Positions 10,492 to 50,482 of a DNA stretch of 64,000 bases are shown one piece after another. The translations under genes and the position numbers were made by a program. The notes under the pieces were generated by a model. It did no database searches. It saw nothing but the letters and a program-made list of their open reading frames with translations, and was not told the DNA's origin. This DNA comes from Escherichia coli (GTDB lineage Bacteria; Pseudomonadota; Gammaproteobacteria; Enterobacterales; Enterobacteriaceae): NCBI RefSeq assembly GCF_041248615.1, contig NZ_CP158426.1; one strand, 5' to 3'. Every line of letters starts with the position of its first letter. The stretch's first letter is position 1.

Positions 10492-10506
10492 AAAAGCGCC
10501 CGCAGG
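10492..10506. repeat. attL core (direct repeat AAAAGCGCCCGCAGG)
   Basis: identical 15-mer at 50468-50482; GGTACTTA at 10516-10523 mirrors TAAGTACC at 50456-50463. Confidence 0.55.
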
Positions 10507-10592
10507 AGATTTAACGGTACTTACTCCTCTTGCTGATTTCCTTATTTTTCAATAAGTAAACAAAAACAAGGGGAGCAAATTATCACAAATAA

Positions 10593-11588
10593 TTACTGGT
10601 CGATGGACAGTTTATGGACACTTTCAGCCAGCGGATTAAAGCTGATCGCATCCTGTAAAAAGTCCGGTGAAAAATGCGCATACGTCATCGTTTGCTGAAT
10701 CGTGGCGTGACCCAGGATCCTCTGCAACGTGACGATGTTCCCGCCGTTCATCATGAAATGCGTGGCGAACGTGTGCCGCATGACATGCGTGGCCTGCCCT
10801 TTGGGTAAGTCGGGCTTCACCTCCTGAAGGATCTCCCTGAAACTGAGATAATCAACCTGATATAACAGGCCGGTCCGGCGGGTTTTAATTAACGGCACAA
10901 CGGAATCAGCTACAGGAACCGAGCGCGATTTCCCGTTCTTTGTGTTAAAGAACGTCACCCTGTTACCCACGATGTGTTCCCCGCGAAGCGTTGACGCCTC
11001 TTTCCATCTGGCCCCGGTCGAAAGGCACAGAATGGCAATGCGTCGTGCATCACCCTCAAGCCGTTTCAGAAGGCGATCAATCTCGTCATCTGAAAGAAAG
11101 GCCATTTCTGTATTCTGAACCTTGAGTTTACGTATTCCGCGCACAGGGTTTTCGTTATGATAAACCTCCGCGTCAATTAACAACGAAAACATCGCAGATA
11201 AGGCGCACAGGTCGCGATTGATACTGGACGGCATCAGTCCCGCCTGCAACTTATCCGAGCGATACTCAATCACGAATTTTCGTGTCATCTGGCTGGCGCG
11301 CGGGTCCCCCATTTCACGTATCACCTTCTCCAGTCTGGTTCTGTAGGTATCACCATATGCCTGATTACGACCATCAAGCATCCACCACACCTCAATCAGT
11401 TCTGATAACCGCCGTTGATCGGCGGGCCTTGCCTGCCACGGGTTATTGTGGAAATTCTGAAGAACGTATCTTTCGAATTCCTGCGCCTTTGATTTCAGGG
11501 TGAAAATCTTACGAATCCGCCTTCCTCCCGCCCCCTGAGGCCTTACATCAACCTGATAACGTCCGTCTTTGAGTTGCTTAATCGACAT
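10593..11588 (-). CDS. int: P2-type tyrosine integrase
   Basis: 331 aa from ATG with SD GGAGGTG; N-terminus MSIKQLKDGRYQVDVRP and C-terminal HxLRHxFAT...Y catalytic region; resemblance to P2 Int is from memory. Confidence 0.9.
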   Translation of the reverse strand: MSIKQLKDGRYQVDVRPQGAGGRRIRKIFTLKSKAQEFERYVLQNFHNNPWQARPADQRRLSELIEVWWMLDGRNQAYGDTYRTRLEKVIREMGDPRASQMTRKFVIEYRSDKLQAGLMPSSINRDLCALSAMFSLLIDAEVYHNENPVRGIRKLKVQNTEMAFLSDDEIDRLLKRLEGDARRIAILCLSTGARWKEASTLRGEHIVGNRVTFFNTKNGKSRSVPVADSVVPLIKTRRTGLLYQVDYLSFREILQEVKPDLPKGQATHVMRHTFATHFMMNGGNIVTLQRILGHATIQQTMTYAHFSPDFLQDAISFNPLAESVHKLSIDQ

Positions 11589-11657
11589 GATCAGCACCTC
11601 CGACGGATAAACCTGTTAACCCCTGCTTACTGAACGCCGCCCGTTCAATATACAGCG

Positions 11658-11999
11658 TCAGCCAGCATTGCGGCCTGATTGGGGTGATTTTTGGGTATTG
11701 CGGGTTGAAACCTGATCGTCCTCCGACTGCGTGGAGCCATCAAGAGAGAGAGCCGGGGCGATCTGACCGGCAACAGGTAGCGTCTTATCTTTGATTAGCC
11801 AGAACATATATTTTTCAAACCGATCCACTTGAAGGACGGCCTCAACAATCTTTGCTCTGGCGATCTTTTGCCCTGACTCATAATTCCTGACAGTTGCCAG
11901 AGATAACCCTGTAATATCAGCAAATTGCTTTTGAGTTAGCCCTTCCGTCTTGCGTATCAAACGCAACTTTTTCGCATAGTCTATTGACAAGATACTCAT
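11658..11999 (-). CDS. P2 C-type immunity repressor (HTH)
   Basis: 113 aa; HTH near N-terminus; C-terminal GQIAPAL motif recalled from P2 C; divergent from cox-like gene. Confidence 0.8.
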   Translation of the reverse strand: MSILSIDYAKKLRLIRKTEGLTQKQFADITGLSLATVRNYESGQKIARAKIVEAVLQVDRFEKYMFWLIKDKTLPVAGQIAPALSLDGSTQSEDDQVSTRNTQKSPQSGRNAG

Positions 12000-12048
12000 T
12001 TGGGGATTAATCTCCTACAAAAGATAACCGTACGATTATCTTTACAAG

Positions 12049-12068
12049 TCATCAAAAATCATCAAAAG
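12049..12068. promoter_or_regulatory. candidate repressor operator, two adjacent 10-bp direct repeats TCATCAAAA(A/G)
   Basis: direct repeats in the C/cox-like divergent promoter region. Confidence 0.4.
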
Positions 12069-12102
12069 GCGCAACAAGCGCACCAATGCAAGAGGATAAC
12101 AA

Positions 12103-12624
12103 ATGCGGGAGATTATTGCCGACAAAGAGTTATCTGGCGCTCAACCGGTTCAGGATGATGGCGCGGACAATGAATTCATTGAAGCTGCCAACGACAACGA
12201 ACACCTGGAAACCAAAACCAGACCGTCCTACAAAAAGGGCGCAACCCTACGACTGGACGGCCCAGTCGCAGGACTTGTGTCACTGGAAAAAGGGGCTGCC
12301 TATCTGGGGGTAACAAAATCTGCGCTACGCGCCGCCATTCAGCGCGGGCAGATGCCGGGTCACAAAACGCGCTCAAATCCCGAAGATGAAAAGTCAGACG
12401 GTACATGGTGGTTTAACGCCAAAGCCTGGGACGAACTAGCCGACGAACTACTGGAGTGCGAACCGCCAGAGTGGCACAACTGGAAAAGCTACTGGACGTA
12501 CGACCGCAAGAAAAGAAAGTTTTCACCGGCAAACAAGGAGGACTGCCAGACCGTTAAAGGTAAGCAGGTTTACTCCCCCAGAGTTTCAAAACTGGAGCAA
12601 CTCAAAAACAACCAGCCCGGCTAA
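12103..12624 (+). CDS. Cox/excisionase-like DNA-binding protein (early operon first gene)
   Basis: 173-aa ORF with SD GAGGAT; divergent from repressor. Confidence 0.55.
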   Translation: MREIIADKELSGAQPVQDDGADNEFIEAANDNEHLETKTRPSYKKGATLRLDGPVAGLVSLEKGAAYLGVTKSALRAAIQRGQMPGHKTRSNPEDEKSDGTWWFNAKAWDELADELLECEPPEWHNWKSYWTYDRKKRKFSPANKEDCQTVKGKQVYSPRVSKLEQLKNNQPG

Positions 12625-12632
12625 ACACGAAA

Positions 12633-12839
12633 ATGACCAGCAATATCATCAATGCCGTTTTGAACATTATATTCCTGGAATTAGGCGTAGTAGTGATTTA
12701 TCTGCTTGGCAAGCTAACAGGACAAAAAGAACGTTTTATTGTCCTCAACGTTCATTACGTCGCAGCTTATTCTAAAGGGCTTTTTCCAATAGTTGTTGGC
12801 GCGGGACTTACAGCGTTTGTCATCTGGCTCATCAGGTAG
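12633..12839 (+). CDS. small 2-TM membrane protein (hypothetical)
   Basis: 68 aa, two hydrophobic helices; AT-rich with rare codons; weak RBS. Confidence 0.35.
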   Translation: MTSNIINAVLNIIFLELGVVVIYLLGKLTGQKERFIVLNVHYVAAYSKGLFPIVVGAGLTAFVIWLIR

Positions 12840-13121
12840 AGGCACACAACGTAATCATTCGTAGCTATATTTCCGCAATAGTATTCAAGTAAAGGAAGAC
12901 AACAACATGAAACCAAGACAAAGATTAACCTCCAGAAGTAGTGACGCATTGCACTTTAAAGCAAAAGACATAATAGCCACAACAAAGGTAGGAGCATAAG
13001 TCTATATACACTTTCAGAATTTCTATCTGGAGAGAACATTAAAAACGGAAGAGGAAGCCAATGAGTATTTGTTATTCATGAAAGATTGCATAGAAGGAAA
13101 AATAAGCGCAGGAGATAAATA

Positions 13122-13430
13122 ATGCGAAAACATTATTCACAGCCACATTTCCGCAACAGTGCACCACGCAGCAATAACCGCTGGAGCCTGCGCGAAACAC
13201 ACGCAACGCCGGGCGGTCATGCTGTAAAACAGACTGGTCAACACACCTGGCTGATTGAGCAGGCCGGACTCGTGATCCACAGATGCCACCGCAATCCGTT
13301 TACCGGAAACCGCATTTTTGCACTGAGCAGCGGCGACAATCAGTTCGGACAGGATTTCACACTGCACGAAGCCTTGCGAACTGCCGACCGCTTAATCGAG
13401 GGGCGCAGCTTTCAGCATACCGACTACTAA
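13122..13430 (+). CDS. hypothetical early protein
   Basis: 102-aa ORF with SD AGGAG upstream. Confidence 0.45.
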   Translation: MRKHYSQPHFRNSAPRSNNRWSLRETHATPGGHAVKQTGQHTWLIEQAGLVIHRCHRNPFTGNRIFALSSGDNQFGQDFTLHEALRTADRLIEGRSFQHTDY

Positions 13431-13468
13431 GGCAAAAGGAGTCTTAATAAGACAGAAGAGGCAGCAAG

Positions 13469-13711
13469 ATGAAAAGAGCCTATAAAGAACTCATTAACGA
13501 CGCGCTTCAGAATTACCATTACGGACTTACAAGCCGTGGCACTAACGGTGACGCTGTTTCACTTGCAGCACTGACTACAGCAATCAAGGGCCTGACCTGT
13601 TGCGCCTTTGGTTCCGGAGATAATGAAGCTCTGACGGAATTACAGGCCATTAATAAAGACCTGTCTGAAGGAAACGTAATAACCCCCTTTGTAATTCAGG
13701 AGGAAGCATGA
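13469..13711 (+). CDS. hypothetical early protein
   Basis: 80-aa ORF with SD; translationally coupled (ATGA) to next small ORF. Confidence 0.5.
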   Translation: MKRAYKELINDALQNYHYGLTSRGTNGDAVSLAALTTAIKGLTCCAFGSGDNEALTELQAINKDLSEGNVITPFVIQEEA

Positions 13712-13833
13712 GCGTATTTATGTCATGGTTAATTCTTATCCTTGCCATTATTTGCGCTGTGGGGATTATGCGGGTAATTAACAGCATTAACACCATTGAA
13801 TCGTTATTTACTGGCGATAAGCGCCGTAAATAA
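13708..13833 (+). CDS. 41-aa hydrophobic peptide (single TM)
   Basis: strong SD AGGAGG 6 nt upstream of ATG; MSVFMSWLILILAIICAVGIMRVINSINTIESLFTGDKRRK; below track length cutoff. Confidence 0.45.
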   Translation: MSVFMSWLILILAIICAVGIMRVINSINTIESLFTGDKRRK

Positions 13834-13913
13834 ACAGGCGTTTAACACCAGAAACAACCAGAAACATCCGCTCACGCGGAGGGGTTGACCCGCTCAAAAA
13901 GGAGAAATCAGGA

Positions 13914-14207
13914 ATGCTTAATAATAAAAAAAACCGAATCATTGATAACAGTGAACAGGTCAACAAAATAATCGAAGGCACAAACAAATTAATTAAGAAA
14001 AAAAACAAACTAAGCCGTGAATTAATGGAACATCCGGAAGAAATATTATTAGCCATGATGCACCAGACAGAAGCGATAGCCATCGCCCTTGCCGTGCAGG
14101 CGCTTTCTGAGTTCCGGGAAGAAAACATCAGGCTGGCTCAGGAGCTGAAAAACCTCAGACGTCAGCTTCAGAGCACTGAGGCTGGCACGTCATCACGAAT
14201 ACACTGA
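13914..14207 (+). CDS. hypothetical coiled-coil protein (AT-rich)
   Basis: 97 aa; SD AAGGAG; markedly AT-rich 5' half. Confidence 0.5.
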   Translation: MLNNKKNRIIDNSEQVNKIIEGTNKLIKKKNKLSRELMEHPEEILLAMMHQTEAIAIALAVQALSEFREENIRLAQELKNLRRQLQSTEAGTSSRIH

Positions 14208-14217
14208 GGGCCACACC

Positions 14218-14427
14218 ATGACTGCAATTCTGAGAAGACGCAATAAAACGCTTTTTACCGATACATCCGGGATGGAATACGAAGTGGAAAGCAGTGTCAT
14301 CGCCACCACCACCCGATGCCCGGCAGGTGACGAACTGATTTACGTCCACCTGACGGACGGGTCACAGATAACCGTCCTGACAGAGTCATGGCGCGAACTC
14401 GAGATAATAAGCGAGGTAAGAACATGA
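14218..14427 (+). CDS. hypothetical early protein
   Basis: 69-aa ORF with SD GAGGG. Confidence 0.45.
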   Translation: MTAILRRRNKTLFTDTSGMEYEVESSVIATTTRCPAGDELIYVHLTDGSQITVLTESWRELEIISEVRT

Positions 14428-14636
14428 GCAGCAAACACGATACCAACGCACGCAGACCAGGCAAAGAGGCGCGTCACCATATCGCCGTAATGCGCAACCT
14501 GCTTATGAGTGAAATCGACGATTTTGTGGCAGGCCTGGGGCAACCGGGCGAACCAGCAACACCAGGCCAGATACACAGGGAATTACGCCGCCGCGTGGAA
14601 AACGTCGTGGATTACGTCATAAACCCGAACGACTGA
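14424..14636 (+). CDS. hypothetical early protein
   Basis: 70 aa from ATG overlapping previous stop (ATGA); SD GAGGT. Confidence 0.45.
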   Translation: MSSKHDTNARRPGKEARHHIAVMRNLLMSEIDDFVAGLGQPGEPATPGQIHRELRRRVENVVDYVINPND

Positions 14637-14675
14637 CGGGAACATGGCGAGCGTCAGATGACACACGCAGGGCAC

Positions 14676-15158
14676 TTATCGGGAAAAACCGATCGTAATG
14701 GCAGCCATCATCTTTTCAGCGAAAGAGAGAGATTCACGATGACTGATATTCAGAGACATACAGGCTTTGTTGTACGCCACATTTTCCATGCATTCCAGGA
14801 CAGGAGAGTCATGCATCTCAAGCTCTGGAAGGCGTGCCAGCAGAGCTTCCGTACTGAGGAGGGCGCTTTTGGTAATCAACTCATTGTAGCGATGGGCATG
14901 CTCACTCGCCGCCTGCGCACGTTGCCCGAAACGACATATGAAATTACAGGCTCCGAGAACCACCACCACTGCCCCAAGCACCCAGCCGAAATGCCAGCCG
15001 GCTACGATGAACGCACCCGCCGCAAGGATCAAAATGTTGATGATCGCATCAAGGCGACGATTGAATACCGCCGCGATGCGCTCCAGCCAGTAGCTGTACC
15101 AGAGACGGAACATGACCTCATCCCGTTCTCTCGATTTTTTACGTTGGTTGTTTTGCAT
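14676..15158 (-). CDS. 2-TM membrane protein, opposite strand to early operon (candidate exclusion/abortive-infection protein)
   Basis: 160 aa; SD GAGGGA; two TM helices then soluble domain; host-like codon usage, unlike the overlapping plus-strand ORF. Confidence 0.6.
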   Translation of the reverse strand: MQNNQRKKSRERDEVMFRLWYSYWLERIAAVFNRRLDAIINILILAAGAFIVAGWHFGWVLGAVVVVLGACNFICRFGQRAQAASEHAHRYNELITKSALLSTEALLARLPELEMHDSPVLECMENVAYNKACMSLNISHRESLSFAEKMMAAITIGFSR

Positions 15159-15392
15159 GGTGTTTTATCCCTCATCGTCATCGCTCTGCCCCTAATCAGC
15201 GCAGAGTGCAGGGTAACCTGGCTCGTGGAATTTTTGCAGCCAGACATCTTTACCCCCGGGCGTGTTGAACAAAGTGTCCGCCAGATCCACTGAACGGCGG
15301 ATTCATCAATGCTAACACGCCCTTCTTTTCCGGTTGAAGGCGAAAAAACCGGACCATTACCCCGACACAAAACAGAACAACGGAGAACAACT

Positions 15393-15947
15393 ATGCCCGC
15401 ACTTAAACCTATGGGTGTATCAGGTGTACCACCGAAGCATGTCAGAGCCTGGACACAACAGGAAGATGCTCTACTGGTCGGTTTATACCCCTCCCACACC
15501 GTACCAGAACTGACAAAACACTTTCAGAGAACCGGGCCAGCAATACGAAGCCGCATCCGTCTTTTGCTCTCTCAGGGGGTTATCCACACCAAACAACCCC
15601 CCCTGAATACAAAAGAACTCAACACGCTCATCAGGAATCGCCACACAAAAACCATCCGGGAACTCGCGAATGAACTGGGGCGCTCGACATCCACGGTGGG
15701 ACTGAACCTGAGAAAAAGAGGGTACCGGTTCAGGAAATACGGGGAACTCCACCACAGAGCCAGATACAGCGATCACCTGGTGGAGTTGGTAACTGAACTG
15801 CGCGATGAACAGGGGATGACATTCAGCGAAATCAGAAAGTACATCCGGGACATGGCCGGGATATCCCTTAAAAGATGGGTCCTCGCCCGGCTTTACGCAC
15901 GATATACCGCCGCTGACACCGTGCTTTGCGAACTGCTACCGGACTGA
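15393..15947 (+). CDS. HTH/Myb-like DNA-binding protein
   Basis: 184 aa from ATG with SD GGAG; W-x2-EDALLVGLY Myb/SANT-like segment; divergent from the membrane-protein gene. Confidence 0.55.
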   Translation: MPALKPMGVSGVPPKHVRAWTQQEDALLVGLYPSHTVPELTKHFQRTGPAIRSRIRLLLSQGVIHTKQPPLNTKELNTLIRNRHTKTIRELANELGRSTSTVGLNLRKRGYRFRKYGELHHRARYSDHLVELVTELRDEQGMTFSEIRKYIRDMAGISLKRWVLARLYARYTAADTVLCELLPD

Positions 15948-16174
15948 GTAACCACTATGCACACACAAAAAAACCGCTTGCCATGCCGCAATCAGTCAGG
16001 TTACATTTCCGCTGCACCTCATAAAACGGGTGCCGGGATTGCAACCCCCGCTGACAACTACAGCGCACAACCGCGCCAGCGGTTTTTTTGTGCGTACCGT
16101 ATCGCCACGTCTTTTTCGCGCCAGAATTATGGCGGGGCGTATGGGGCCGACTTCGGTCGGGCCGGTTTCTGTAG

Positions 16175-16242
16175 TTGCCGGTGGTTGCAACCCTGTACGT
16201 CTCGCCACCCAGAATTGCAACCTCTGGATGGTGAGTTTTCAA
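16175..16242. promoter_or_regulatory. three phased TTGCAAC(C) boxes; a fourth copy at 16029-16036
   Basis: TTGCAA palindromic cores at 16175, 16205, 16236 (30-31 bp apart), upstream of ORF 16268. Confidence 0.35.
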
Positions 16243-16267
16243 AACTTGCAACTACAGAGGCCACACC

Positions 16268-16492
16268 ATGGCAAACCGCAAACAACAGCGCGCATACGCT
16301 GCGCGTCGTCACATCCAGACTGAAATCAACCGCAGACTTTTCCGCGCATTCCGCGTCGCGCATATCATGCACATCAATATGCTGCATGAGCGCAGCCACG
16401 CACTGTCAAACATGTATTCCGCCGCTGTATTCAGCTACCTGGCGGATGACCTGCGCGAGCTGCAGGACCTCATTAACCAGCACCACCACTAA
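16268..16492 (+). CDS. small basic protein (hypothetical)
   Basis: 74 aa; SD AGAGG; basic N-terminus. Confidence 0.45.
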   Translation: MANRKQQRAYAARRHIQTEINRRLFRAFRVAHIMHINMLHERSHALSNMYSAAVFSYLADDLRELQDLINQHHH

Positions 16493-16560
16493 TCAACATC
16501 CCGGAGCCATCCCGCCCCCGTACGCGGGAGGCTTCCGCACGTCCGTTTCCGGAGGTTCTC

Positions 16561-16974
16561 ATGAAGAGCGTTAAGGGACTTTCAGATATTCAGGATTTTT
16601 TTAACTGGATGTGGGCGGTGGATCCACGCCTCGCTTCCCGTCTCAATGACCTGCACGACTATTACCGCCGCGCCTGTAAACAGGCAGCCCGCAGCGCTGC
16701 CACATACGGGGATTTTTCCTTCACCGTTGACGACCGTTACCGCGTGGATGTCAGAGACCAGAACCACAGCCTGGAGCTGGGCCTGTTCCACATCAACGGG
16801 TGCGACAGCAGCGTTATCAGCTGGTCATCGTCAGAAATGGTGCTCGTTCTGGAAATGACCACCCACAGCGTGGTCGTGAAAGGGATTAAAACAGCAGAAG
16901 ACTTTATCGCTGAATACCAGCGCCTTCTTGTGCTGTACCGGGCTGCATTTCAGAAGGCAACAGCAGGGGAGTAA
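16561..16974 (+). CDS. hypothetical protein upstream of gpA
   Basis: 137 aa; SD GGAGG; 5 bp before gpA. Confidence 0.6.
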   Translation: MKSVKGLSDIQDFFNWMWAVDPRLASRLNDLHDYYRRACKQAARSAATYGDFSFTVDDRYRVDVRDQNHSLELGLFHINGCDSSVISWSSSEMVLVLEMTTHSVVVKGIKTAEDFIAEYQRLLVLYRAAFQKATAGE

Positions 16975-16979
16975 GCGGA

Positions 16980-19490: not shown

Positions 19491-19918
19491 CGCGATTTTG
19501 CTGCACCATGCAGCGCCCACAGTTTGAGGCCATCATGCGCCAGCGTATGCCGGTGCTGACACTGTTCAGGCCTGCCACAAGGCCACAACCGGGCGACGAG
19601 CTGGAAATCACGATAGTCAGCCCCGATCGCACCACGGAGACCACCATCGCCGACATACTCAACAGGCGGCCGGGCAGCGAGAGCCATAGCTGGACTGTCG
19701 TCATTCGTCCGCGCCGTTCGCCGGAGGAACCGGAGCCGTGCACGCCTGCCGGGAAAATCATGCAGAGATATCACGAAGAGCGGACACGCAGGCACAACGG
19801 CGGACTGGCCAGAACACTGAACACAGTCAATCACAAGGCCGCGCTGGCGCGAATGGTCTTTTCACCACAACGCAATTCATTCGCCAGACCAGCACAGAAC
19901 GGGAGGAAACAACAGTGA
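19487..19918 (+). CDS. hypothetical protein (P2 orf91 position)
   Basis: 143 aa; ATG overlaps gpA stop (ATGA); SD GGAGG. Confidence 0.5.
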   Translation: MTRFCCTMQRPQFEAIMRQRMPVLTLFRPATRPQPGDELEITIVSPDRTTETTIADILNRRPGSESHSWTVVIRPRRSPEEPEPCTPAGKIMQRYHEERTRRHNGGLARTLNTVNHKAALARMVFSPQRNSFARPAQNGRKQQ

Positions 19919-20109
19919 GCAGAATATTACTTTTTCTGCTGTTTTTCGCGCCATTCGCACAATCAGCCACGCCGAACTGCGTAGCGAAAAAGAGCAACAC
20001 CGTTGTCATTGTCCAGTGTGATGACGGCACGGTAACAATCACCGACTCGAGCAAAGGAAGCGTCATTGTCTGCCGTAAAGAGAAACCCTGTCAGCGAACC
20101 GAACTTTGA
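19915..20109 (+). CDS. small secreted Cys-containing protein (signal peptide)
   Basis: GTG start overlapping upstream stop (GTGA), SD GGAGG; 64 aa, MSRILLFLLFFAPFAQS signal then 4 Cys. Confidence 0.5.
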   Translation: MSRILLFLLFFAPFAQSATPNCVAKKSNTVVIVQCDDGTVTITDSSKGSVIVCRKEKPCQRTEL

Positions 20110-20120
20110 AGGAAAAATAT

Positions 20121-20435: not shown

Positions 20436-20436
20436 T

Positions 20437-21044: not shown

Positions 21045-21050
21045 ATGAGC

Positions 21051-21078
21051 AAAACGCCCTCCTCCAGGGCGTTTATTT
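21051..21078 (+). terminator. intrinsic terminator ending the 3-gene cargo operon
   Basis: stem AACGCCCT/AGGGCGTT, loop CCTCC, then T-rich tract. Confidence 0.5.
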
Positions 21079-21081
21079 CAA

Positions 21082-23371: not shown

Positions 23372-23382
23372 TACGGGATCCA

Positions 23383-39517: not shown

Positions 39518-39528
39518 GCGAGGTACTC

Positions 39529-42840: not shown

Positions 42841-43045
42841 GCTCTGCGTTCCCGCTGCGAAGGGCCGCCCGCTCACGCCAGGCGACCACCTCGCCGGGAT
42901 CCATCAGGAAGATTTCAGCGGGAGACCAGTTGAAAATAACGGCGATATCCGCCACAAAGTCTTCAATGTGCTCAAAGGGCACGACGGTTATCAGCCTGCC
43001 GTCGCCGCCCCGCTCTTCCCGCCAGAGTCCTGACCGGCCAAAAAA
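42827..43045 (-). CDS. gpE' extension reached by programmed -1 frameshift
   Basis: slippery TTTTTTG (plus-strand 43039-43045); -1 frame open until a stop overlapping the gpT start. Confidence 0.5.
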   Translation of the reverse strand, partial: FFGRSGLWREERGGDGRLITVVPFEHIEDFVADIAVIFNWSPAEIFLMDPGEVVAWRERAALRSGNAEHENA

Positions 43046-43353
43046 TTAACCGCCACCCCGCACAGCTGAATAAAATCAGCGGACCCCATGCGCTTAAGCA
43101 GAACCTCGTCCAGTCGCGGCGAAGTGACGCGCGGGAGTAACTCAAACATCGCGTCCGTTTTCATGTTCAGCACGTCAAGCAGTGACAGCCCGCGCAGTGA
43201 ACCGGCCTGCTGTACAGCAGGCGTGATTTCCACATACGTGATTTTTTTGTTACCGAGCACAAGGGGCGTTTTCAGCGTCACGCCGCGCTCACTGGTCACG
43301 TCCGCCGCATCAGCACCGTCAGTAACAGGGGCAACAACCGGATTTTCTTTCAT
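42991..43353 (-). CDS. tail assembly chaperone (P2 gpE-like)
   Basis: 120 aa; slippery heptamer TTTTTTG near 3' end. Confidence 0.75.
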   Translation of the reverse strand: MKENPVVAPVTDGADAADVTSERGVTLKTPLVLGNKKITYVEITPAVQQAGSLRGLSLLDVLNMKTDAMFELLPRVTSPRLDEVLLKRMGSADFIQLCGVAVNFLAGQDSGGKSGAATAG

Positions 43354-43403
43354 GCATAAAACCTCAAATCAGGGGGCGACGCCGCGCGCCGCCGTGGGAA
43401 ACA

Positions 43404-43922
43404 TTAACCACCAAGACCAATCGCCGAGCGCACGCGGTCCGGGAAGACGTTTTTGCCGTCCTTGCGTTCGATGTGGTTCAGTAAATCAATCTCCAGCACC
43501 GGACGGTCGTTAATGCTGAGTTTGTAGTAGGTACTCCTGACCGCATAGGTGTGAGACGTGACCTCACCCTGTTTTGCCTCCCCCGTATCAATTTCCGTCA
43601 CGCGGCCGCGAAGCTCAATTTCATACAGGTCGCTCTGCTCTTCATCGTTGTAGTACTCACCGACAAAGCGCAGCAGCGTACCGTCGATCGTGCCGCCGTA
43701 CTTAAGGAACAGTTCGCGGGTCGGCCCGCCCATGGTGAAACTCGCATCCAGCGCGCCGTCATCCAGACCAAGGTCGATATTCACCGCGCCGGCCATACCA
43801 CCACCGCGATAGGCTTCCGTTTTACGGGTCAGTTTGGGGGGCGTGAAGCCGGTCACCCTGCCAATCTGGTTCACCCCGTCAGTAAACAGCGTGAACACCC
43901 TGAGATTTTTTGGTACGGCCAT
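43404..43922 (-). CDS. tail tube protein (P2 gpFII-like)
   Basis: 172 aa; conserved KLTRK and EIDTGE regions. Confidence 0.85.
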   Translation of the reverse strand: MAVPKNLRVFTLFTDGVNQIGRVTGFTPPKLTRKTEAYRGGGMAGAVNIDLGLDDGALDASFTMGGPTRELFLKYGGTIDGTLLRFVGEYYNDEEQSDLYEIELRGRVTEIDTGEAKQGEVTSHTYAVRSTYYKLSINDRPVLEIDLLNHIERKDGKNVFPDRVRSAIGLGG

Positions 43923-45205
43923 TAAGCACCTCCAAGCGTCGCAAATGCAGGACCAAAGAATTCATCAGTAAACGCCTGGTAAAGTTCCATATCCTCAAGC
44001 GGCGGAACGGGCGTGTACTTGTAGCGGATACGCACGCGTCCCTGACGAAGTTCCGTGGTGCTGTTATCCACCACGTCATACCAGCACTCCGCACCAATGA
44101 GACGTCCTGACGTAACCAGCGCATCCAGTTTTGCGCGAATTGCGCTTAACACGTCTTTCACATTAGCAGGGGTCAGCGGGGCATCAATCGTTTCAAACTG
44201 CGCTTCCGCAATGGAATCAGCCAGCACCTGAGCGGTTCGCGTGTACACCTCAAAGATATACGCCTTCGTTTCCGGCGTACGGTTGCCCCAGAAGCGGAAA
44301 CCGTTACGGCAAATGATGGTAGTGATTTCCTTGTTGTTGAGATTGTTGGCATCGCTGTCTTCGGACTGAAGGGACCAGAACACCGGGCTGGAAATACCCA
44401 GCACATTTCTTACCGGCACGTTGGACAGCGATTTATGCCAGCCCTGTTCGTGGTCAATACGTGCACGTAAACCGCAGGCGTACGCCGCAGCCGGGAAGAC
44501 CTCATTAGCGCCGGATTTCGGGTTATGGGCGATGAAGTCCGGCCAGACCAGCATAAGTTCGCGCTCGTTAAATCTGGCGCGGTAGCTGATTGCATCGGCG
44601 GGCTTCTTGCAGTTGTGACAGCCCGCGTAGACAAATGCGCGAAGTTTTTCTGCAATTACACACAGGGATTTTGTGACAGCTTCAGTATCCAGTCCGGGAG
44701 CTGCGATGATGCGCGGACGGTAACCGATGGCATCATCCTGTTCAGCTATCAGAAGTGCATACATACCGGTATAATTACCGTCGCCATCCGTGCCACCAAT
44801 GACATACTGGTCCTGCGTTTTGTGTGGGTATACAGGATGTGCATCTTCAGACTCATCAATACCAAAAAATGCCCTGTCTTCAGGATCCAGATGACCGAAT
44901 GATGTAACTCCTGTATCCGGGGCGCCCTGAGAACTGGCATCAGGAACGCGCACCACAATCACCTTCGTGCTCACCTGGTCGGCGACAGCCTTAAGCGATT
45001 TGTAAAGCGTCCCCTTTGTGCCGGCCTTACCCAGCACATCACTGACGCGGGTCAGCAGTGTGGGTTTGTTCAGCGGGAACAGAGTTTCATCCGCGTCATC
45101 TGCCGTAGCCACAATACCAATAACACTGGAATCCACATCATTAATGGCGGTGGCAAGGCCGGTACTTTCCCTTACGCGCGCACCATGAAAGCGTGTTTCA
45201 CTCAT
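43922..45205 (-). CDS. tail sheath protein (P2 gpFI-like)
   Basis: 427 aa from ATG 45203-45205 (MSETRFHGARV); track ORF start at 45352 is an unsupported extension. Confidence 0.85.
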   Translation of the reverse strand: MSETRFHGARVRESTGLATAINDVDSSVIGIVATADDADETLFPLNKPTLLTRVSDVLGKAGTKGTLYKSLKAVADQVSTKVIVVRVPDASSQGAPDTGVTSFGHLDPEDRAFFGIDESEDAHPVYPHKTQDQYVIGGTDGDGNYTGMYALLIAEQDDAIGYRPRIIAAPGLDTEAVTKSLCVIAEKLRAFVYAGCHNCKKPADAISYRARFNERELMLVWPDFIAHNPKSGANEVFPAAAYACGLRARIDHEQGWHKSLSNVPVRNVLGISSPVFWSLQSEDSDANNLNNKEITTIICRNGFRFWGNRTPETKAYIFEVYTRTAQVLADSIAEAQFETIDAPLTPANVKDVLSAIRAKLDALVTSGRLIGAECWYDVVDNSTTELRQGRVRIRYKYTPVPPLEDMELYQAFTDEFFGPAFATLGGA

Positions 45206-45278
45206 ATGTTTCACCCTTGTCTGGCTGGTTGATTTTGCGTAATCATTACCCACACACGCGGTAATCTCACCCCTTTGA

Positions 45279-45302
45279 TGTTGTCTCCTGACAGCGACAA
45301 CA
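45279..45302. promoter_or_regulatory. Ogr-type late-promoter dyad between divergent gpFI and gpD
   Basis: TGTTGTCTCCTGACAGCGACAACA; centre about 85 and 76 bp from the two start codons. Confidence 0.5.
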
Positions 45303-45366
45303 AAACAGCCATTCAACGCCGCTGCGGTGCATGAAACCATTACAGAACGCACCAGGAGAGAACACC

Positions 45367-46458
45367 ATGAAAGAGCTGTCAGTTACCGTTCCGTCACCGG
45401 ATATCGACATCACCATCAACAACAACACACTGGCAAACCTCACAGAGCGACTCATGACGCTGACCCTGACGGATAACCGGGCCTTTGAGGCAGACCGCGT
45501 CACCCTCACCCTTGACGATACGGACGGGCAGTTACAGTTGCCACCACGTGGCGCACGCCTGAGAGTGATGATTGGCTGGCGAGGAGAATCACTGGTTAAC
45601 AAGGGCACCTACGTCGTTGATGAGGTTGCGTGGGAAGGACCTCCAGATAAACTGATCATCACCGCCAGCAGCGCAGATTTTCGGGAAGAGTTCAACGTGA
45701 GGCGGGAGGTATCCTGGCACGACGTGACCGTAAAACAGGTTGTGTCAGCCATCGCTCACCGCTACGGCCTGAAGACACAGATAAGCGAAATCCTCATGGA
45801 TATCGAAATTGACCACGCTGACCAGACCGAAGAGAGCGATATATCCTTCCTGACCCGCATGGCTGAAATGCTGGGTGCGATTGCCACCGTAAAAAACGGC
45901 AGCCTGTTATTCATTCTGCCGGGTGGCGGAACCGGGCCGGACGGAAGAGCCCTGCCTTCGTTCGCCATTACCCGCAGCAGCGGCGACAGTCACCGCTTTC
46001 GCATTGCTGACCGTGATGCGTATACGGGGGTCCGGGCGCACTGGCTCGATCTGAAGTTCGGGCACAAGAAAAAAGTGAACGTGAAGCGACGCAGGGAAGC
46101 CGGGAAACAGAAACAGGAGAAGAGCAGCAGCCGGGAGGGTGATTACATGGAAGGCGCGGAAGGGAACGTCTACGTTCTGCGCAGGACTTACCAGAATGAA
46201 GAAACCGCACGACGTGCAGCTGCGGCAAAGTGGCAGGAGTTACAGCGGGGAGCAGCGGCATTCTCCATCACTCTGGCACGGGGTCGTGCCGACCTGTATC
46301 CCGAAATGCACGGCAGGGTAACAGGTTTTAAAAGCGAGGTGGACAATCAGGACTGGATTATTGCCAGGGTGGAGCACATCATAGATGAAAGCGGCTTCAC
46401 CACACAACTGGAGCTGGAAGCGAAAATCCCCGAATGGATAGCAGATTCAGGCGGATAA
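45367..46458 (+). CDS. tail protein D (P2 gpD-like)
   Basis: 363 aa from ATG 45367 with SD AGGAGAG; N-terminus MKELSVTVPSPD. Confidence 0.8.
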   Translation: MKELSVTVPSPDIDITINNNTLANLTERLMTLTLTDNRAFEADRVTLTLDDTDGQLQLPPRGARLRVMIGWRGESLVNKGTYVVDEVAWEGPPDKLIITASSADFREEFNVRREVSWHDVTVKQVVSAIAHRYGLKTQISEILMDIEIDHADQTEESDISFLTRMAEMLGAIATVKNGSLLFILPGGGTGPDGRALPSFAITRSSGDSHRFRIADRDAYTGVRAHWLDLKFGHKKKVNVKRRREAGKQKQEKSSSREGDYMEGAEGNVYVLRRTYQNEETARRAAAAKWQELQRGAAAFSITLARGRADLYPEMHGRVTGFKSEVDNQDWIIARVEHIIDESGFTTQLELEAKIPEWIADSGG

Positions 46459-46501
46459 AATTAAAATGAGCCATCTCCACTCAGCCAGATAAGGAGAAGC
46501 C

Positions 46502-46753
46502 ATGTTCCGTTGTCCCCTATGCGGTGCATCCGCACGTATCCGCACCAGTCGCAATGAAAATGATTCAGGCACAGTTCGCCTGAAGTACTACCAGTGCAAT
46601 AACCTCGAATGCGGGATCGGCTTTACCACACTGGAGGGTTTTAACAAATTCACATCAAAACGCGCCCCGTCGCCGCAGGGTACAGAGCGGATACCGTGGG
46701 AAGATTTTCCGGGATCTCACAGGGGGAATACTCAGATTAATCTTGATATTTAA
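46502..46753 (+). CDS. ogr: Ogr/Delta-family zinc-finger late activator
   Basis: 83 aa; MFRCPLCG...YYQCNNLEC four-Cys finger; SD AAGGAG. Confidence 0.85.
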   Translation: MFRCPLCGASARIRTSRNENDSGTVRLKYYQCNNLECGIGFTTLEGFNKFTSKRAPSPQGTERIPWEDFPGSHRGNTQINLDI

Positions 46754-46759
46754 GAACAA

Positions 46760-46897
46760 TAATCAGGTTGAGAGGACATCATAAGGCAAGTAGATTAACG
46801 GCAGATACTTTCCCGCAACCACGGGCAAGTATTTAATTATCCATGATGAAATATGACCTAAATTGTTTTTTGCCCGCCGGAAAGCGGGCATTTTTTT
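46760..46897 (+). repeat. repeat unit 1 (partial) ending in bidirectional intrinsic terminator
   Basis: shares GTTGAG...AGTAGATTA...CCATGAT...TTTTGCCCGCCGGAAAGCGGGCATTTTTTT with four downstream units. Confidence 0.55.
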
Positions 46898-47111
46898 ATT
46901 CTTTTGTGGTTATGGGGTCATCAGGAACCACGTGCAGATTATATTTTTGTTTTTTTGGCGTTCCTCCGGCAGCAACGAGTTCATCAATAAGACACTGACA
47001 CGCCTGAACATCCCGGGCATGTCTTAGTTTCACCTTTATTGATTTAACCTTATCCTCACCGGAGGAGAAATGCAGTTCAATCTCAATATCGTTTCTTCGG
47101 AACAATCTCAT
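46896..47111 (-). CDS. small protein of unknown function
   Basis: 71 aa (MRLFRRNDIEIELHF...); two decayed copies downstream; palindrome upstream. Confidence 0.5.
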   Translation of the reverse strand: MRLFRRNDIEIELHFSSGEDKVKSIKVKLRHARDVQACQCLIDELVAAGGTPKKQKYNLHVVPDDPITTKE

Positions 47112-47206
47112 ACGCCCCCTGAATATATCAGAAATACTAGTATCGAAAAATGAGAAAACAGTTAGACAGGAGAAACATATTAACACAAATCATTTATACC
47201 TATAGA

Positions 47207-47222
47207 TGAAATTATAATTTCA
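47207..47222. promoter_or_regulatory. perfect 16-bp palindrome TGAAATTATAATTTCA upstream of the small gene
   Basis: palindromic; related inverted repeats upstream of the two decayed copies. Confidence 0.35.
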
Positions 47223-47331
47223 TTCATGAATATGATAGATAACTATATTGTGAACAAAATGAAAAATGGCTAAATTAAAAATGGGCATGGAGGAATGCCC
47301 GGTTATCAATATAATGTGACGTAGATCATTG

Positions 47332-47562
47332 TTTTGCCCGCCGGAGAGCGGGCATTTTTTTTGCGCCTGCCATCGAGGCGCCTTCCCTGGCGCACACAAA
47401 GCAGCCCTGATTTTCCATGAAAACTTCAGGGTTGAGCTGCGGGCACAAAGTGAGTAGATTAGCTACGGGTACCTCCCCCTGACAACAGGAAGGGTGTCCA
47501 TTATCCATGATATACAAACGAAAAGTCTTGTTTTTTGCCCGCCGAAGCGCGGGCATTTTTTT
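47332..47562 (+). repeat. repeat unit 2, terminator-to-terminator (candidate structured sRNA)
   Basis: bounded by GCCCGCCGGAGAGCGGGC and GCCCGCCGAAGCGCGGGC hairpins with T-runs; internal conserved hairpin CCCTGATTTTCCATGAAAACTTCAGGG. Confidence 0.5.
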
Positions 47563-47688
47563 ATGCATCAGACAAGATACAGCCCACCCCAACTGACACC
47601 TGAAATATTGCCGCAACAAAAAGAAACAGTTAAATTACGCGCGGGTGCCTTTCGGCTGATGGCCGGAGGGAAAACCTGAAGGCCGGAT

Positions 47689-47922
47689 GTGGAAAGGCCC
47701 CGGAAAACATTTCTGTTTAACCGAGGCCCTAACCGCATTACCTTGACAAGTGAAAGGTTAGCGCCTCTCCGGAAAAGGAGCAAGTGCTATGTCGCAAAAA
47801 TCGCTTACGGCCATCACGTTCTGCGTGACGGCAATCCTCATCATCTGGATATTGCACGGTTCGCTGTGCGAAATACGGATGAGCTTCTGGGGAGCGGAGT
47901 TTGCGGCGTTCTTACAATGTAA
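47689..47922 (+). CDS. mok-like overlapping reading frame of hok locus 1
   Basis: 77-codon frame starting upstream of and overlapping hok, as in hok/mok/sok loci. Confidence 0.35.
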   Translation: MERPRKTFLFNRGPNRITLTSERLAPLRKRSKCYVAKIAYGHHVLRDGNPHHLDIARFAVRNTDELLGSGVCGVLTM

Positions 47923-47929
47923 GAAGTAA
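47789..47929 (+). CDS. hok: Hok/Gef-family type I toxin
   Basis: 46 aa MSQKSLTAITFCVTAILIIWILHGSLCEIRMSFWGAEFAAFLQCKK; SD AAGGAG; single TM plus conserved LCE and AAF motifs. Confidence 0.7.
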   Translation: MSQKSLTAITFCVTAILIIWILHGSLCEIRMSFWGAEFAAFLQCKK

Positions 47930-48015
47930 GGAAACCGCGACGGGGGAGCAATCCCCCGTCAATCGGTTGCCAGGGTAAGGTCGATAAGGCACCCTATCTC
48001 ACAGACATGAACAAC

Positions 48016-48050
48016 AAACCCGCAGCATAAAAACTGCGGGTTTTCTTTTT
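48016..48050 (+). terminator. intrinsic terminator of hok locus 1
   Basis: stem CCCGCAG/CTGCGGG followed by TTTTCTTTTT. Confidence 0.5.
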
Positions 48051-48181
48051 GGTGTCCTCACCGACTTGAAACAGTGATCAGACTATAAGACAAAGCCCGC
48101 AATGTTGCGGGCTTACTCTACCTCTCGAAAATGTGGTCACTGCGTGGACATACGCTGATACAAATCCTTTATATCAATAAA

Positions 48182-48280
48182 TTAAATCTTTGTTTTTTTC
48201 ATCAACAATGATTTAACCTTATCCTCACCGGAGGAGAAATGCAGTTCAATCTCAATATCGTTTCTGTGGAACAGCCTCAT
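48182..48280 (-). pseudogene. truncated copy of the 71-aa small gene
   Basis: first 24 codons near-identical to 46896-47111 copy, then diverges to early stop. Confidence 0.45.
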
Positions 48281-48501
48281 AAGACAACCTCCTGAATTCA
48301 TCAGAAACACAGTCAACTGAAAACCAGAAAGCAGACAAACAGTGGACACACATTAATACAAATCATTTATACCTATAGATGAAATTGCAGTTTCATCTAT
48401 AACATGACAGGTAACAATATTGTGAAAAAACTCAAAACTCGTTAGATTAAAGACGGACAGAGCAATGCTACTTTATCAATAACATGTAACCTGTACTTCC
48501 T

Positions 48502-48732
48502 TATTTTGCCCGCCGAAGCACGGGCATTTTTTTTGCGCCTGCCATCGAGGCGCCTTCCCTGGCGCACACAAAGCAGCCCTGATTTTCCATGAAAACTTCA
48601 GGGTTGAGCCAAAAGCACAAAGACAGTAGATTAACCACGGGTGCCTTCCACCTGACAACAGGAAGGGTGTCCAGTATCAATGACAGACAACTCACATTGC
48701 TGTTTTGCCCGCCGGAAAGCGGGCATTTTTTT
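48502..48732 (+). repeat. repeat unit 4, terminator-to-terminator
   Basis: same architecture and sequence family as unit 2. Confidence 0.5.
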
Positions 48733-48734
48733 AT

Positions 48735-48936
48735 TCTTTTGTGGTTATTGGGTCATCAGGAACAACATGCAGATTATGCTTTGATTTTTTTGGTGTTATT
48801 ACAGCAGCAACGAGTTTATTAATAAGACACTGACATGCCTGAACATCCCTGACATATCATAATTTCACTTTATTTTTTTAGCTTGTCCTTTCTGGAGCAG
48901 AAATATCTCAACATCGTTTCTGTGGAACAACCTCAT
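48735..48936 (-). pseudogene. degenerate copy of the 71-aa small gene
   Basis: nucleotide homology to 46896-47111 across its length but reading frame disrupted. Confidence 0.35.
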
Positions 48937-49151
48937 TTGCCCCTGAATGTATCATAAATATCAGCATCGGAAAACCAACAGCAATACAGAAGAAACATGT
49001 TAATGCAAATCACTTATACCTATAGATGAAATTACAGTTTTGTTCATAAATATGATAAGTAACTATATTGTGAATAAAATGAAAACTAGCTAAATTAAAC
49101 GTGGGCATGGTGGAATGCCTCGTAATCAATAATACATGATCCGTACTTCCT

Positions 49152-49380
49152 TGTTTTGCCCGCCGGAAAGCGGGCATTTTTTTGGCGGTTACCATCGCCT
49201 CACCTTCCTGGTTCACATGAAGCAACCCTGATTTTCCATGAAAACTTCAGGGTTGAGACAAAAGCACAAAGACAGTAGATTAACCACGGGTACCTTCCAC
49301 CTGACAACAGGAAGGCTGTCCAGTATCAATGACAGACAACTCACATTGCTGTTTTGCCCGCCGGAAAGCGGGCTTTTTTT
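49152..49380 (+). repeat. repeat unit 6, terminator-to-terminator
   Basis: same family; 5' hairpin region diverged, 3' region conserved. Confidence 0.5.
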
Positions 49381-49582
49381 GGCAGTTATCATAGCCGCAC
49401 CTTCCTGGCACATATGAAGCAACCCTGATTTTCCATGAAAACTTCAGGGTTGAGACAAAAGCACAAAAACAGTAGATTAACCACGGGTGCCTGCCACCTG
49501 ACAACAGGAAGGGGTGTCCATTATCCATGATATACAAACGAAAAGTCTTGTCTTTTGCCCGCCAAAGCGCGGGCATTTTTTT
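49351..49582 (+). repeat. repeat unit 7, terminator-to-terminator (shares a terminator with unit 6)
   Basis: same family; directly upstream of hok locus 2. Confidence 0.5.
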
Positions 49583-49793
49583 ATGCATCAGACAAGATAC
49601 AGCCCACCCCAACTGACACCTGAAATATTGCCGCAACAAAAAGAAACGGATGCCTTTCGGCTGATGGCCGGAGGGAAAACCTGAAGGCCGGATGTGGAAA
49701 GGCCCCGGAAAACATCTGTGTTTAACCGAGGCCTGACCCTTCCTACCGTGACAAGTGGAAGGTTAGCGCCTCTTTGTAAAAGGAGCAAGCGCT

Positions 49794-49934
49794 ATACCGC
49801 AAAAAACGATTATTGTTGGCATTTTATGCCTGACAATAACCCTGGTCATCTGGATGGTCCACGATTCGTTATGTGAATTCAGCTTTGATATCTGGGGAGC
49901 GCGTTTTGCGGCGTTCTTGCAGTGTAAACCGTAA
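49794..49934 (+). pseudogene. hok-like toxin gene copy 2 with ATA in place of ATG
   Basis: encodes IPQKTIIVGILCLTITLVIWMVHDSLCEFSFDIWGARFAAFLQCKP; no canonical in-frame start; mok-like frame 49694-49876 overlaps. Confidence 0.45.
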
Positions 49935-50084
49935 GAAACCGCAGCGGGGGAGAAATTCCCCGCTATCCGGTTGTTGGGGTGGGCCGATATGGCGCCCTTT
50001 CCCTGTAGAGACAAAACAAAAAACCAGATTTGCCCGCCATTGAGAGGGCTTTTTTGTCACCCTCACCAGTGAGGGCATCATCAT

Positions 50085-50312
50085 TCAGAGGCGCGTAAGC
50101 CACCCGGCGTTAACATCCTGCCTGTCAACCCTGGCCGCAGAGTCTGAACGGCAGGTACCGGAAGGAGTACCAAAAACATCCCTGACAAGTTCCGCCACCT
50201 TCCCGATATCATCAGGTGTCACATTCCTCACCTCGGCCGTGATCCGTGGCGTACCATCATCGTTAACAAGAGTGGCTTTAAAGCTGGTGCGAAGGGAAAA
50301 CAACATCAACAT
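50085..50312 (-). CDS. hypothetical 75-aa protein at prophage right end
   Basis: strong SD GGGAGGGG before ATG; no recognisable motif. Confidence 0.5.
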   Translation of the reverse strand: MLMLFSLRTSFKATLVNDDGTPRITAEVRNVTPDDIGKVAELVRDVFGTPSGTCRSDSAARVDRQDVNAGWLTRL

Positions 50313-50423
50313 CCCCTCCCTTTGGTTCGTTGCACTGACGGCACGACACCATCAGGAAAAAGAAAAGCCCACAACGTCAGTATTGTGGACTTTTTTCTTC
50401 AAAGATGGACATTATCTGGACAC

Positions 50424-50450
50424 ATGAAAATAAAATCCATTTATTTTCAT
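50424..50450. promoter_or_regulatory. perfect 11-bp-arm inverted repeat ATGAAAATAAA/TTTATTTTCAT next to attR
   Basis: perfect palindrome, 5-bp spacer, 17 bp from the att core. Confidence 0.35.
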
Positions 50451-50467
50451 ATAGTTAAGTACCATGC

Positions 50468-50482
50468 AAAAGCGCCCGCAGG
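50468..50482. repeat. attR core, overlapping the serS intrinsic terminator
   Basis: identical to 10492-10506; continues into GCGCTTTTT terminator 3' of serS. Confidence 0.55.

Follow-up and report, generated by a model that had tools for sequence, protein, structure and literature searches.

The window analysed here, by which is meant the whole stretch of 64,000 nucleotides taken from Escherichia coli contig NZ_CP158426.1 (assembly GCF_041248615.1), carries between the genes serS and dmsA an element which, judged by its genes, is a prophage of the P2 family (Peduoviridae). The reading of its arrival that we regard as highly probable, when taken as a whole, is as follows. The heterobivalent tyrosine integrase (Int) of the prophage would insert the element into a G+C-rich hairpin in the serS–dmsA spacer, using a phage attachment site (attP) built on the plan of P2, with two (A/C)TGGACA repeats in each arm, a block resembling an integration host factor (IHF) site lying between core and P arm, and, encoded close by, a directionality factor of the Cox family. 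Int would exchange strands inside the 8 bp CCCGCAGG, which form the middle of the hairpin AAAAGCG-CCCGCAGG-CGCTTTT of the bacterial attachment site (attB); the stem arms of this dyad, of pattern N-C-N-A-A-A, would serve as the core-type Int sites of attB, and imperfect copies of them would do so in attP. A more distant pair of inverted 8-mers, TAAGTACC and GGTACTTA, would then be a coincidence peculiar to this lineage or, at most, a non-essential feature.

The empty site and its occupants

The integration site between serS and dmsA, as first proposed in the initial annotation of this DNA, is borne out by the junctions and by an exact native empty site. The repeat AAAAGCGCCCGCAGG occurs exactly, on the plus strand, in only two copies in the window, and these mark the two ends of the element, the left and right attachment sites attL and attR, where that annotation had placed them; the identity stops at 15 bp, with not one further matching base on either side. 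Exact direct 15-mer repeats are of themselves unremarkable in 64 kb, since chance alone would give about 2 and the window contains 4 isolated pairs, and the significance of this pair derives instead from its location exactly at both host synteny breakpoints. On both sides, the identity with the host stops exactly at the repeat (at 10506 in the case of attL). The two host genes lie on the minus strand, dmsA at 7852-10296 and serS at 50511-51803, the window being in the reverse of the usual K-12 orientation. Joining the two flanks with one copy of the repeat (10297-10506 plus 50483-50510) gives a serS–dmsA spacer of 238 bp, as against the approximately 240 bp stated in the initial annotation, and this spacer is the same as positions 606-843 of the comparison locus L018. 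The comparison with prophage-free E. coli that had been recommended as a check comes out in the same sense: the joined sequence of 1215 bp is 100% identical to the unbroken serS–dmsA region of NZ_OW967178.1, in which the spacer is also 238 bp, and the site is uninterrupted in 5076 of 5426 complete E. coli genomes. The site TTGATACCGAACAA of the dmsA promoter, which is presumably an FNR site by the established consensus TTGAT-N4-ATCAA, is kept on the dmsA side.

A related right arm is found beside serS in 356 complete E. coli genomes, a number that agrees with the approximately 350 interrupted sites and places relatives of the prophage at this site in about 6.5% of complete genomes. These arms include 26 that are at least 99% identical to that of the window and 312 that are 80-90% identical, the latter group containing UTI89 and ST131 strains. 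In this regard, Nilsson et al. 2011 (PMC3448106) list PhiECO5, a P2-type prophage of UTI89 at 911187-948481, as a new immunity class, IX. Since serS of UTI89 ends at 911155 and dmsA begins at 948688, the coordinates of PhiECO5 fall between the two genes, and it occupies the same serS–dmsA site. The insertion point is, therefore, already catalogued and the element in the window is an ordinary P2-family member there, such that the overall significance of its presence is small. Full-text literature searches for prophage or P2-like together with serS and dmsA found nothing.

Probable position of the strand exchange

For six prophages at the same attB, namely those of the window and of strains UTI89, EC571, ETEC1732, STEC17-183 and 04-00955, whose integrases are 87-90% identical, both attL and attR were extracted. 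The block over which phage and host are identical varies between them, being 20 bp in UTI89, EC571 and ETEC1732 (AAAGCGCCCGCAGGCGCTTT), 15 bp in the window, 10 bp in STEC17-183 (CGCCCGCAGG) and 8 bp in 04-00955, and the intersection of the blocks over the six lineages is the 8-bp CCCGCAGG. In other words, the 15-bp repeat is the length of attP/attB identity of the window lineage only, and not the functional core of the site. Moreover, in STEC17-183 and 04-00955 the bases bordering CCCGCAGG can be told apart by origin: on the P side, a phage-specific C (position 5) and A (position 7) are found at attR, with host bases at attL, and on the other side phage-specific AGA or AGG is found at attL, with the host CGC at attR. 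As phage-specific bases on the two sides thus segregate to different junctions, strand exchange most likely takes place inside CCCGCAGG, as far as comparison of sequences can place it.

The rule for tyrosine recombinases is that inverted repeats flank an identical core of 6-8 bp (PMC4111918), and the centre of the hairpin conforms to it. The stem arms of attB are perfect mirror images of each other; they directly flank CCCGCAGG, the length of which fits that expected of the overlap, and for this reason they would be natural core-type Int sites. In the attP of the UTI89 type a perfect inverted repeat, TTAAAGCG/CGCTTTAA, abuts CCCGCAGG, and in that of the window lineage the flanking repeat is imperfect. 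Read from the inner to the outer end, all phage and host half-sites of the six lineages have the pattern N-C-N-A-A-A, which offers a testable half-site pattern for this branch of P2-type integrases. Both this pattern and the placing of the probable crossover within 8 bp in the middle of the serS terminator dyad are derived here.

The distal 8-mers are present where the initial annotation had located them, but its further proposal, that they are core-type Int sites of attP bracketing a 15-bp crossover core, appears highly improbable. It is true that they form a perfect inverted repeat of 8 bp, that each lies no more than 20 nt from the 15-bp repeat, and that the centre between them is only 1 bp from that of the terminator dyad. 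In shuffled sequences, a perfect inverted repeat of at least 8 bp arises by chance between the flanks with a probability of 0.004 for flanks of 20 nt and of 0.03-0.10 for flanks of 40-60 nt (0.004-0.05 against the genomic background), although, the repeat having been chosen after the fact, all of these values are only nominal. Set against this is the geometry of the site, since the 8-mers stand 11 and 9 nt from CCCGCAGG with 28 bp between them, where core sites are expected to be separated by 6-8 bp (PMC4111918) and to abut the crossover directly. They have no counterpart in attB, and the five other lineages that share this attB lack them and have no other inverted repeat of at least 6 bp at that distance; the aligned positions read TAAGCCTC/GTTCATTG, TAATCTCA/ACACCTTA, TAACCCCA/GCTACTTA and TAAACTTC/GTTTCTTG, no pair of which is complementary. 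The 8-mers are, in other words, neither conserved nor compensated for among near-identical integrases. Furthermore, the left 8-mer overlaps a block homologous to the IHF footprint of P2, and the conserved TTAA at its start belongs to the IHF-like element TTTCA(A)NNNNTTA. Because of the spacing, the absence from five lineages, the overlap with this block and the existence of a better candidate in the stem arms, the distal 8-mers are probably not core-type sites.

The same repeat might instead be a genuine accessory feature of the window lineage, tuning recombination without defining the crossover, in which case it could offer IHF, Cox or a second Int protomer an extra contact, or form a long-range stem in a transcript that crosses attP. 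This too seems unlikely. Its nominal improbability and near concentricity with the dyad count here as before, and both 8-mers are kept in all of the approximately 25 genomes with the window lineage, a retention that carries little weight because those copies are at least 99% identical. In 04-00955, the closest of the diverged relatives, with a P' arm that is 91% identical, the repeat is not conserved, GCTACTTA being kept with no partner, and an RNA stem with a 28-nt loop would be weak. The sequence AACGGTAC occurs also in the Cox-protected region of P2, yet 25 nt further from the core: it is found in the P' arm at 10512-10519 of the window and at 509-516 of the P2 locus (L017), 3 nt and 28 nt, respectively, after GGAGATTT. 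Given this difference in distance from the core, the two copies were rejected as positional homologues and are probably coincidental. There is a more general caution to be drawn, which is that the length of an attL/attR repeat is a property of a lineage and not a functional core, and that a comparison of lineages should support inverted repeats close to a junction before they are termed binding sites.

Architecture and present activity of the element

The integrase carries the Pfam domains PF00589 and PF24624, shares 51% identity with canonical P2 Int across 99% of its length, and matches the structure PDB 5c6k with E=4e-95, with the motifs TGARW, HxxRH, LGH and TYAH aligned and conserved; the catalytic residues of tyrosine recombinases are R...HxxR...H...Y.

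The reconstructed attP, the junction of which reads ...TAAGTACCATGCAAAAGCGCCCGCAGGAGATTTAACGGTACTTA..., contains in order a terminator-like hairpin, ATGGACA-N4-CTGGACA, the block AATAAAATCCATTTATTTTCATATAGTTA, the core, a P' arm of about 96 nt, and ATGGACA-N4-ATGGACA. The annotation of the P2 record AF063097 runs from the ogr terminator through the Int P arm (TCGATGTGGTCAATGTGTGGACG...), IHF (AATAAATCCTTTTATTTCAATTTATTG...), the Int core (AAAAAATAAGCCCGTGTAAGGGAGATTT) and the Cox region to the Int P' arm (CTGTGGACACTGTGTGGACAC), the last of which overlaps the 3' end of int. By comparison with this record, attP in the window is found between ogr and int with the arms, IHF-like block and core in the P2 order and spaced much as in P2, the end of ogr (46753) lying some 3.6 kb upstream of the hairpin with hok/sok cargo between. 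The arm consensus of P2-type phages is given in PMC3448106 as tgTGGaCa, directly repeated twice to either side of the core; the repeats (A/C)TGGACA fit this consensus and number two per arm. All four are in one orientation and conserved in all six lineages, the P' pair being invariant, and the spacing of arm to core is constant also, TGGACAC standing always 49 nt before CGCCCGCAGG. Additionally, GGAGATTT, which closes the right end of the footprinted core of P2, recurs in the window at the point where the repeat passes into phage-specific sequence. By its homology, the IHF-like block would be an IHF site; a scan for IHF sites allowing at most 1 mismatch returned only the element of P2. The identity of the Cox site in attP is presumptive, with no cox boxes identified in the attP of the window and a Cox-family protein of 173 amino acids present. 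The features are collected in Table 1.

Table 1. Features of the prophage, its attachment sites and the adjoining host DNA, in coordinates of the window
Feature	Position	Strand	Remarks
Match to Rfam STnc130 (RF02084), putative enterobacterial small RNA	10387..10521	+	Full length; antisense to dmsA promoter and leader
Presumed FNR-type site TTGATACCGAACAA of dmsA promoter	10467..10480	-	11 bp outside the repeat, on the host (dmsA) side of attL
attL copy of 15-bp block AAAAGCGCCCGCAGG	10492..10506	+	Host B half-site AAAAGCG 10492-10498; centre CCCGCAGG 10499-10506
Prophage body, 39,961 bp	10507..50467		P2-like early, head, lysis and tail genes, D, ogr; IS21-family insertion; hok/sok-type cargo
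Proposed phage C' core-type half-site AGATTTAAC	10507..10515	+	Imperfect mirror of AAAAGCG; with the preceding GG gives GGAGATTT (10505-10512), as at the right end of the footprinted P2 core
Right 8-mer GGTACTTA	10516..10523	+	Specific to window lineage
int, P2-type tyrosine integrase, 331 amino acids	10593..11588	-	Pfam Int_N and Phage_integrase; PGAP 'phage integrase'
P'-arm arm-type Int sites	10603..10620	+	Direct repeats ATGGACA (10603-10609, 10614-10620), 11 bp apart; inside last codons of int
C-type immunity repressor (helix–turn–helix)	11658..11999	-	Pfam; PGAP name
Cox-family protein, 173 amino acids, presumed excision directionality factor	12103..12624	+	Pfam Phage_Cox 34.8 bits (cut-off 27.5); PGAP name
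ogr	46502-46753		hok/sok-type cargo between ogr and attP
Terminator-like hairpin	50363..50394	+	Just upstream of P-arm repeats; position of P2 ogr/F-operon terminator
P-arm arm-type Int sites	50404..50423	+	Direct repeats ATGGACA (50405-50411) and CTGGACA (50416-50422), 11 bp apart
Block AATAAAATCCATTTATTTTCATATAGTTAAG, homologous to annotated P2 IHF footprint	50428..50460	+	Aligns with P2 AATAAATCCTTTTATTTCAATTTATTG; conserved across lineages
IHF-like element TTTCATATAGTTA	50445-50457	+	Inside the preceding block
Left 8-mer TAAGTACC	50456..50463	+	Specific to window lineage; first bases overlap IHF-like element
attR copy of 15-bp block AAAAGCGCCCGCAGG	50468..50482	+	C half-site AAAAGCG 50468-50474; centre CCCGCAGG 50475-50482
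Host B' half-site CGCTTTT	50483..50489	+	Right arm of terminator stem

Certain points weigh against the reading set out at the beginning. The 8 bp of CCCGCAGG are properly an upper bound on the overlap, as judged from only four distinct types of att sequence, and only 4 of 8 positions in the C' half-site of the window agree with the mirror of C. The IHF-like TTTCATATAGTTA has, by manual count, 2 mismatches to WATCAANNNNTTR, where the relatives and P2 have 1. The 8-mer repeat, nominally improbable (p about 0.004-0.03) and with its offset of 1 bp from the centre of the dyad, has a possible lineage-specific role. No contiguous attP of a free or circular phage is found in the phage collection, IMG/VR, metagenomes or the 5426 E. 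coli genomes, such that excision at the repeat is unobserved. Lastly, in view of its insertion sequence and greater length, described below, the copy in the window may not be a viable phage.

The searches for attP were of several kinds. The reconstructed attP of 400 bp gave only half-matches in the phage collection, and among the complete E. coli genomes no locus spanning both arms. A strict composite pattern of P-arm repeat, core and P'-arm repeat had 0 matches in IMG/VR and 0 in metagenome contigs; a relaxed form of it returned 2 matches in IMG/VR (L011 and L012), which were dismissed as chance occurrences in unrelated GC-rich DNA, and a 22-mer specific to attL found in IMG/VR one additional attL (L013) and no attP. 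The three closest 'phage' records (vB_EcoM-569R5, -705R2 and Entero_P88...(23)) were also set aside, being prophage predictions that include host dmsA/dmsB and supply attL, not attP. The records ON470599.1, PV468777.1 and ON470623.1 of the phage collection, although labelled as phage genomes, contain dmsA and dmsB and stop inside the prophage, and are mis-bounded predictions and not virion genomes.

An IS21-family insertion sequence (IS) occupies approximately 21635-24219, between the replication genes and the portal gene, with IstA at 21830-23371, IstB at 23383-24132 and imperfect terminal inverted repeats. This insertion explains the excess of about 2.6 kb, computed from coordinates, of the prophage over the otherwise identical copy in NZ_CP033635.1. 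The element is 40.0 kb in length in the window as against 37.3-37.9 kb in relatives such as those of UTI89 and STEC17-183, the other lineages fetched measuring 33.2-36.3 kb. The sole PADLOC result, a match of IstB to DrmD, is a cross-hit of the IS21 ATPase and not a defence system.

These observations bear on whether the copy in the window is a fixed, defective prophage that no longer excises or forms particles, its repeat only a historical scar, which we hold to be a possibility, albeit a doubtful one. The IS21-family element and the added length speak for it, as do the absence of the attP junction from every collection searched and the existence of a deleted derivative of 21.3 kb in strain LH10-b-1. 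As against this, int, C, cox, both att sites and all four arm repeats are intact, the set of structural genes appears complete from open reading frames (ORFs) and synteny with relatives, and the IS sits in an intergenic cargo region. Such a view concerns the current activity of the prophage and not its mode of arrival, and the copy in the window may still be able to excise. P2-type phages are poorly inducible by the SOS response. As to LH10-b-1 (NZ_CP100530.1), its prophage, which has identical int-C-cox, has shrunk to about 21.3 kb, with replication and head genes deleted and the tape-measure gene a pseudogene, and is a case of decay in place at the same att sites.

Elsewhere along the element the genes are likewise P2-like, and comprise those for replication, portal, terminase, capsid, lysis, baseplate, tail fibre, sheath, tube and tape measure, together with D and ogr. 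The block from sheath to tail protein is on the opposite (minus) strand, in the window as in all related prophages fetched; a local inversion was considered and rejected, this being the normal layout of the lineage. In the early region, Rfam matches above threshold to isrK (60 bits, 16014-16089, plus strand) and, beside it, to the C4 antisense RNA (80 bits, 16125-16212, plus strand) overlap an ORF at 15957-16574, and the pair looks like an antisense immunity module of the P1/P7 c4 type inside a P2-like phage. The tail-fibre gene (36113-38347) contains many exact direct 15-mer repeats (36600-37700) at offsets that are mostly multiples of 30 nt, for example 300, 390 and 690, which indicates an internally repetitive fibre shaft. 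The cargo at the right end (46800-50000), hardly annotated by PGAP, consists of diverged direct repeats with units recurring at about 1.17 and 2.0 kb, and includes two hok/sok-like modules, with sub-threshold sok matches at 47643-47802 and 49648-49805 and a hok ORF at 47789-47929; relatives have one or two Hok/Gef genes at the same position. In EC571 (NZ_AP027436.1) a gene for a TIR-domain protein lies between D and ogr of the prophage at the same site (42633-43547 of locus L015), and ETEC1732 has a YafO-family toxin near attR. The stretch from D through ogr to attR appears to be a variable cargo spot.

The prophage of 04-00955 (NZ_CP035498.1) has the same int/att module, its Int being 88% identical, together with quite different structural genes (DUF2586, baseplate J/gp47 and others), and represents a mosaic, its integration module having been transferred between morphogenetic backbones. 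In strain CS5L (NZ_CP158311.1; 1640-1900 of locus L006) the right arm of a prophage is 89% identical to that of the window through the arm-type repeats, after which it diverges and adjoins copA, not serS. It seems to be a sister lineage whose att specificity differs, and would be useful for mapping the determinants of specificity.

The target hairpin and comparison with known systems

The hairpin at attB is, on the evidence of folding and of the Rfam model, the predicted terminator of serS on one strand and the terminal hairpin of the putative small RNA (sRNA) STnc130 on the other. The folding energies of the two strands are -14.1 and -15.5 kcal/mol, the latter that of the serS strand, on which a hairpin of 10 pairs is followed by 7 U in the manner of an intrinsic terminator. 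A simple terminator scan missed the attB hairpin, as its T run is taken up by the stem, and folding was used in its place. The initial annotation had the serS terminator intact, and this holds for the reconstructed attB but not fully for the lysogen: at attR the serS-side hairpin is kept with its U-tract reduced from 7 to 4, and at attL of the window the plus-strand hairpin no longer forms (-7.4 kcal/mol, not surpassing shuffled sequences). By contrast with the attL of the window, that of the UTI89 type keeps the hairpin. Indeed, from the 20-bp identity of PhiECO5 with attB it follows that its attP carries the whole hairpin, and that both its attL and attR keep it.

The STnc130 model, in which the terminal hairpin corresponds to the attB dyad, scores 125.8 bits in the window, where two pairs of the stem are broken at attL, as against 140.1 bits at the empty site, the gathering threshold being 55 bits. 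The only record of STnc130 is as a putative sRNA of Salmonella that adjoins dmsA (PMC3632133). It is unlikely, in our estimation, that the true target is the 3' terminator of a genuine sRNA antisense to the promoter and leader of dmsA, with lineages that differ in whether they rebuild its hairpin. Were this so, an STnc130 transcript would read through attL of the window into the antisense strand of int, and lysogeny by the window lineage, but not by the UTI89 type, would alter the 3' end of an sRNA and possibly the regulation of int or dmsA. That attB overlaps a putative sRNA terminator, which some lineages restore and the window lineage does not, is mildly novel.

According to PMC3448106, P2-type integrases usually insert between genes; 186, in a tRNA-Ile gene, and Fels-2/SopEPhi, in ssrA, are temperate phages that enter small structured RNA genes at their 3' ends. 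The present site resembles those of 186 and Fels-2/SopEPhi in that a small (putative) RNA gene has at its 3' end a conserved hairpin of dyad symmetry, which is the target, and in that some lineages, those of the UTI89 type, carry enough identity to restore the target. It differs from them in that the target is an intrinsic terminator common to a protein gene and a merely putative sRNA, and not a tRNA or transfer-messenger RNA gene.

The paradigm of lambda Int (PMC4111918) has the same elements as those proposed for the window phage, namely arm-type and core-type sites, bending by IHF, a directionality factor and a short identical overlap between inverted core sites. Int of the window phage is only distantly related to that of lambda, the arm sites are others, Cox takes the place of Xis, and the overlap is here deduced from sequence.

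With PhiECO5 the prophage of the window shares the insertion point, an Int that is 90% identical, the arm repeats and their spacing, and the layout of its genes. The two differ in the extent of identity with attB (20 bp in PhiECO5, 15 bp in the window lineage), in the hairpin, which PhiECO5 keeps at both junctions and the window lineage loses at attL, and in the distal 8-mer repeat, which PhiECO5 does not have.

The comparison with P2 itself is one of a common plan directed to a different target. P2 integrates at locI and the phage of the window at the serS–dmsA terminator; core identity is 27 bp in P2 and 15 bp in the window; Cox is of 91 amino acids in P2 and 173 in the window; and the block of tail sheath, tube and tape-measure genes is on the opposite strand in the window. 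A further change of target is seen in NC_070906.1 ('Peduovirus P2', 31,490 bp), which has P2-type arm repeats and IHF block with a core unrelated to that of AF063097, and is a P2 relative with another integration specificity. What P2 and the phage of the window have in common is a homologous integrase, the arm consensus, GGAGATTT at the right end of the core and a C/Cox switch adjoining int, as well as the order in which a terminator (or, in the window, a terminator-like hairpin) is followed by two P-arm repeats, a block that is the IHF site in P2 and IHF-like in the window, the core, the Cox region (presumed in the window) and two P'-arm repeats that overlap the 3' end of int.

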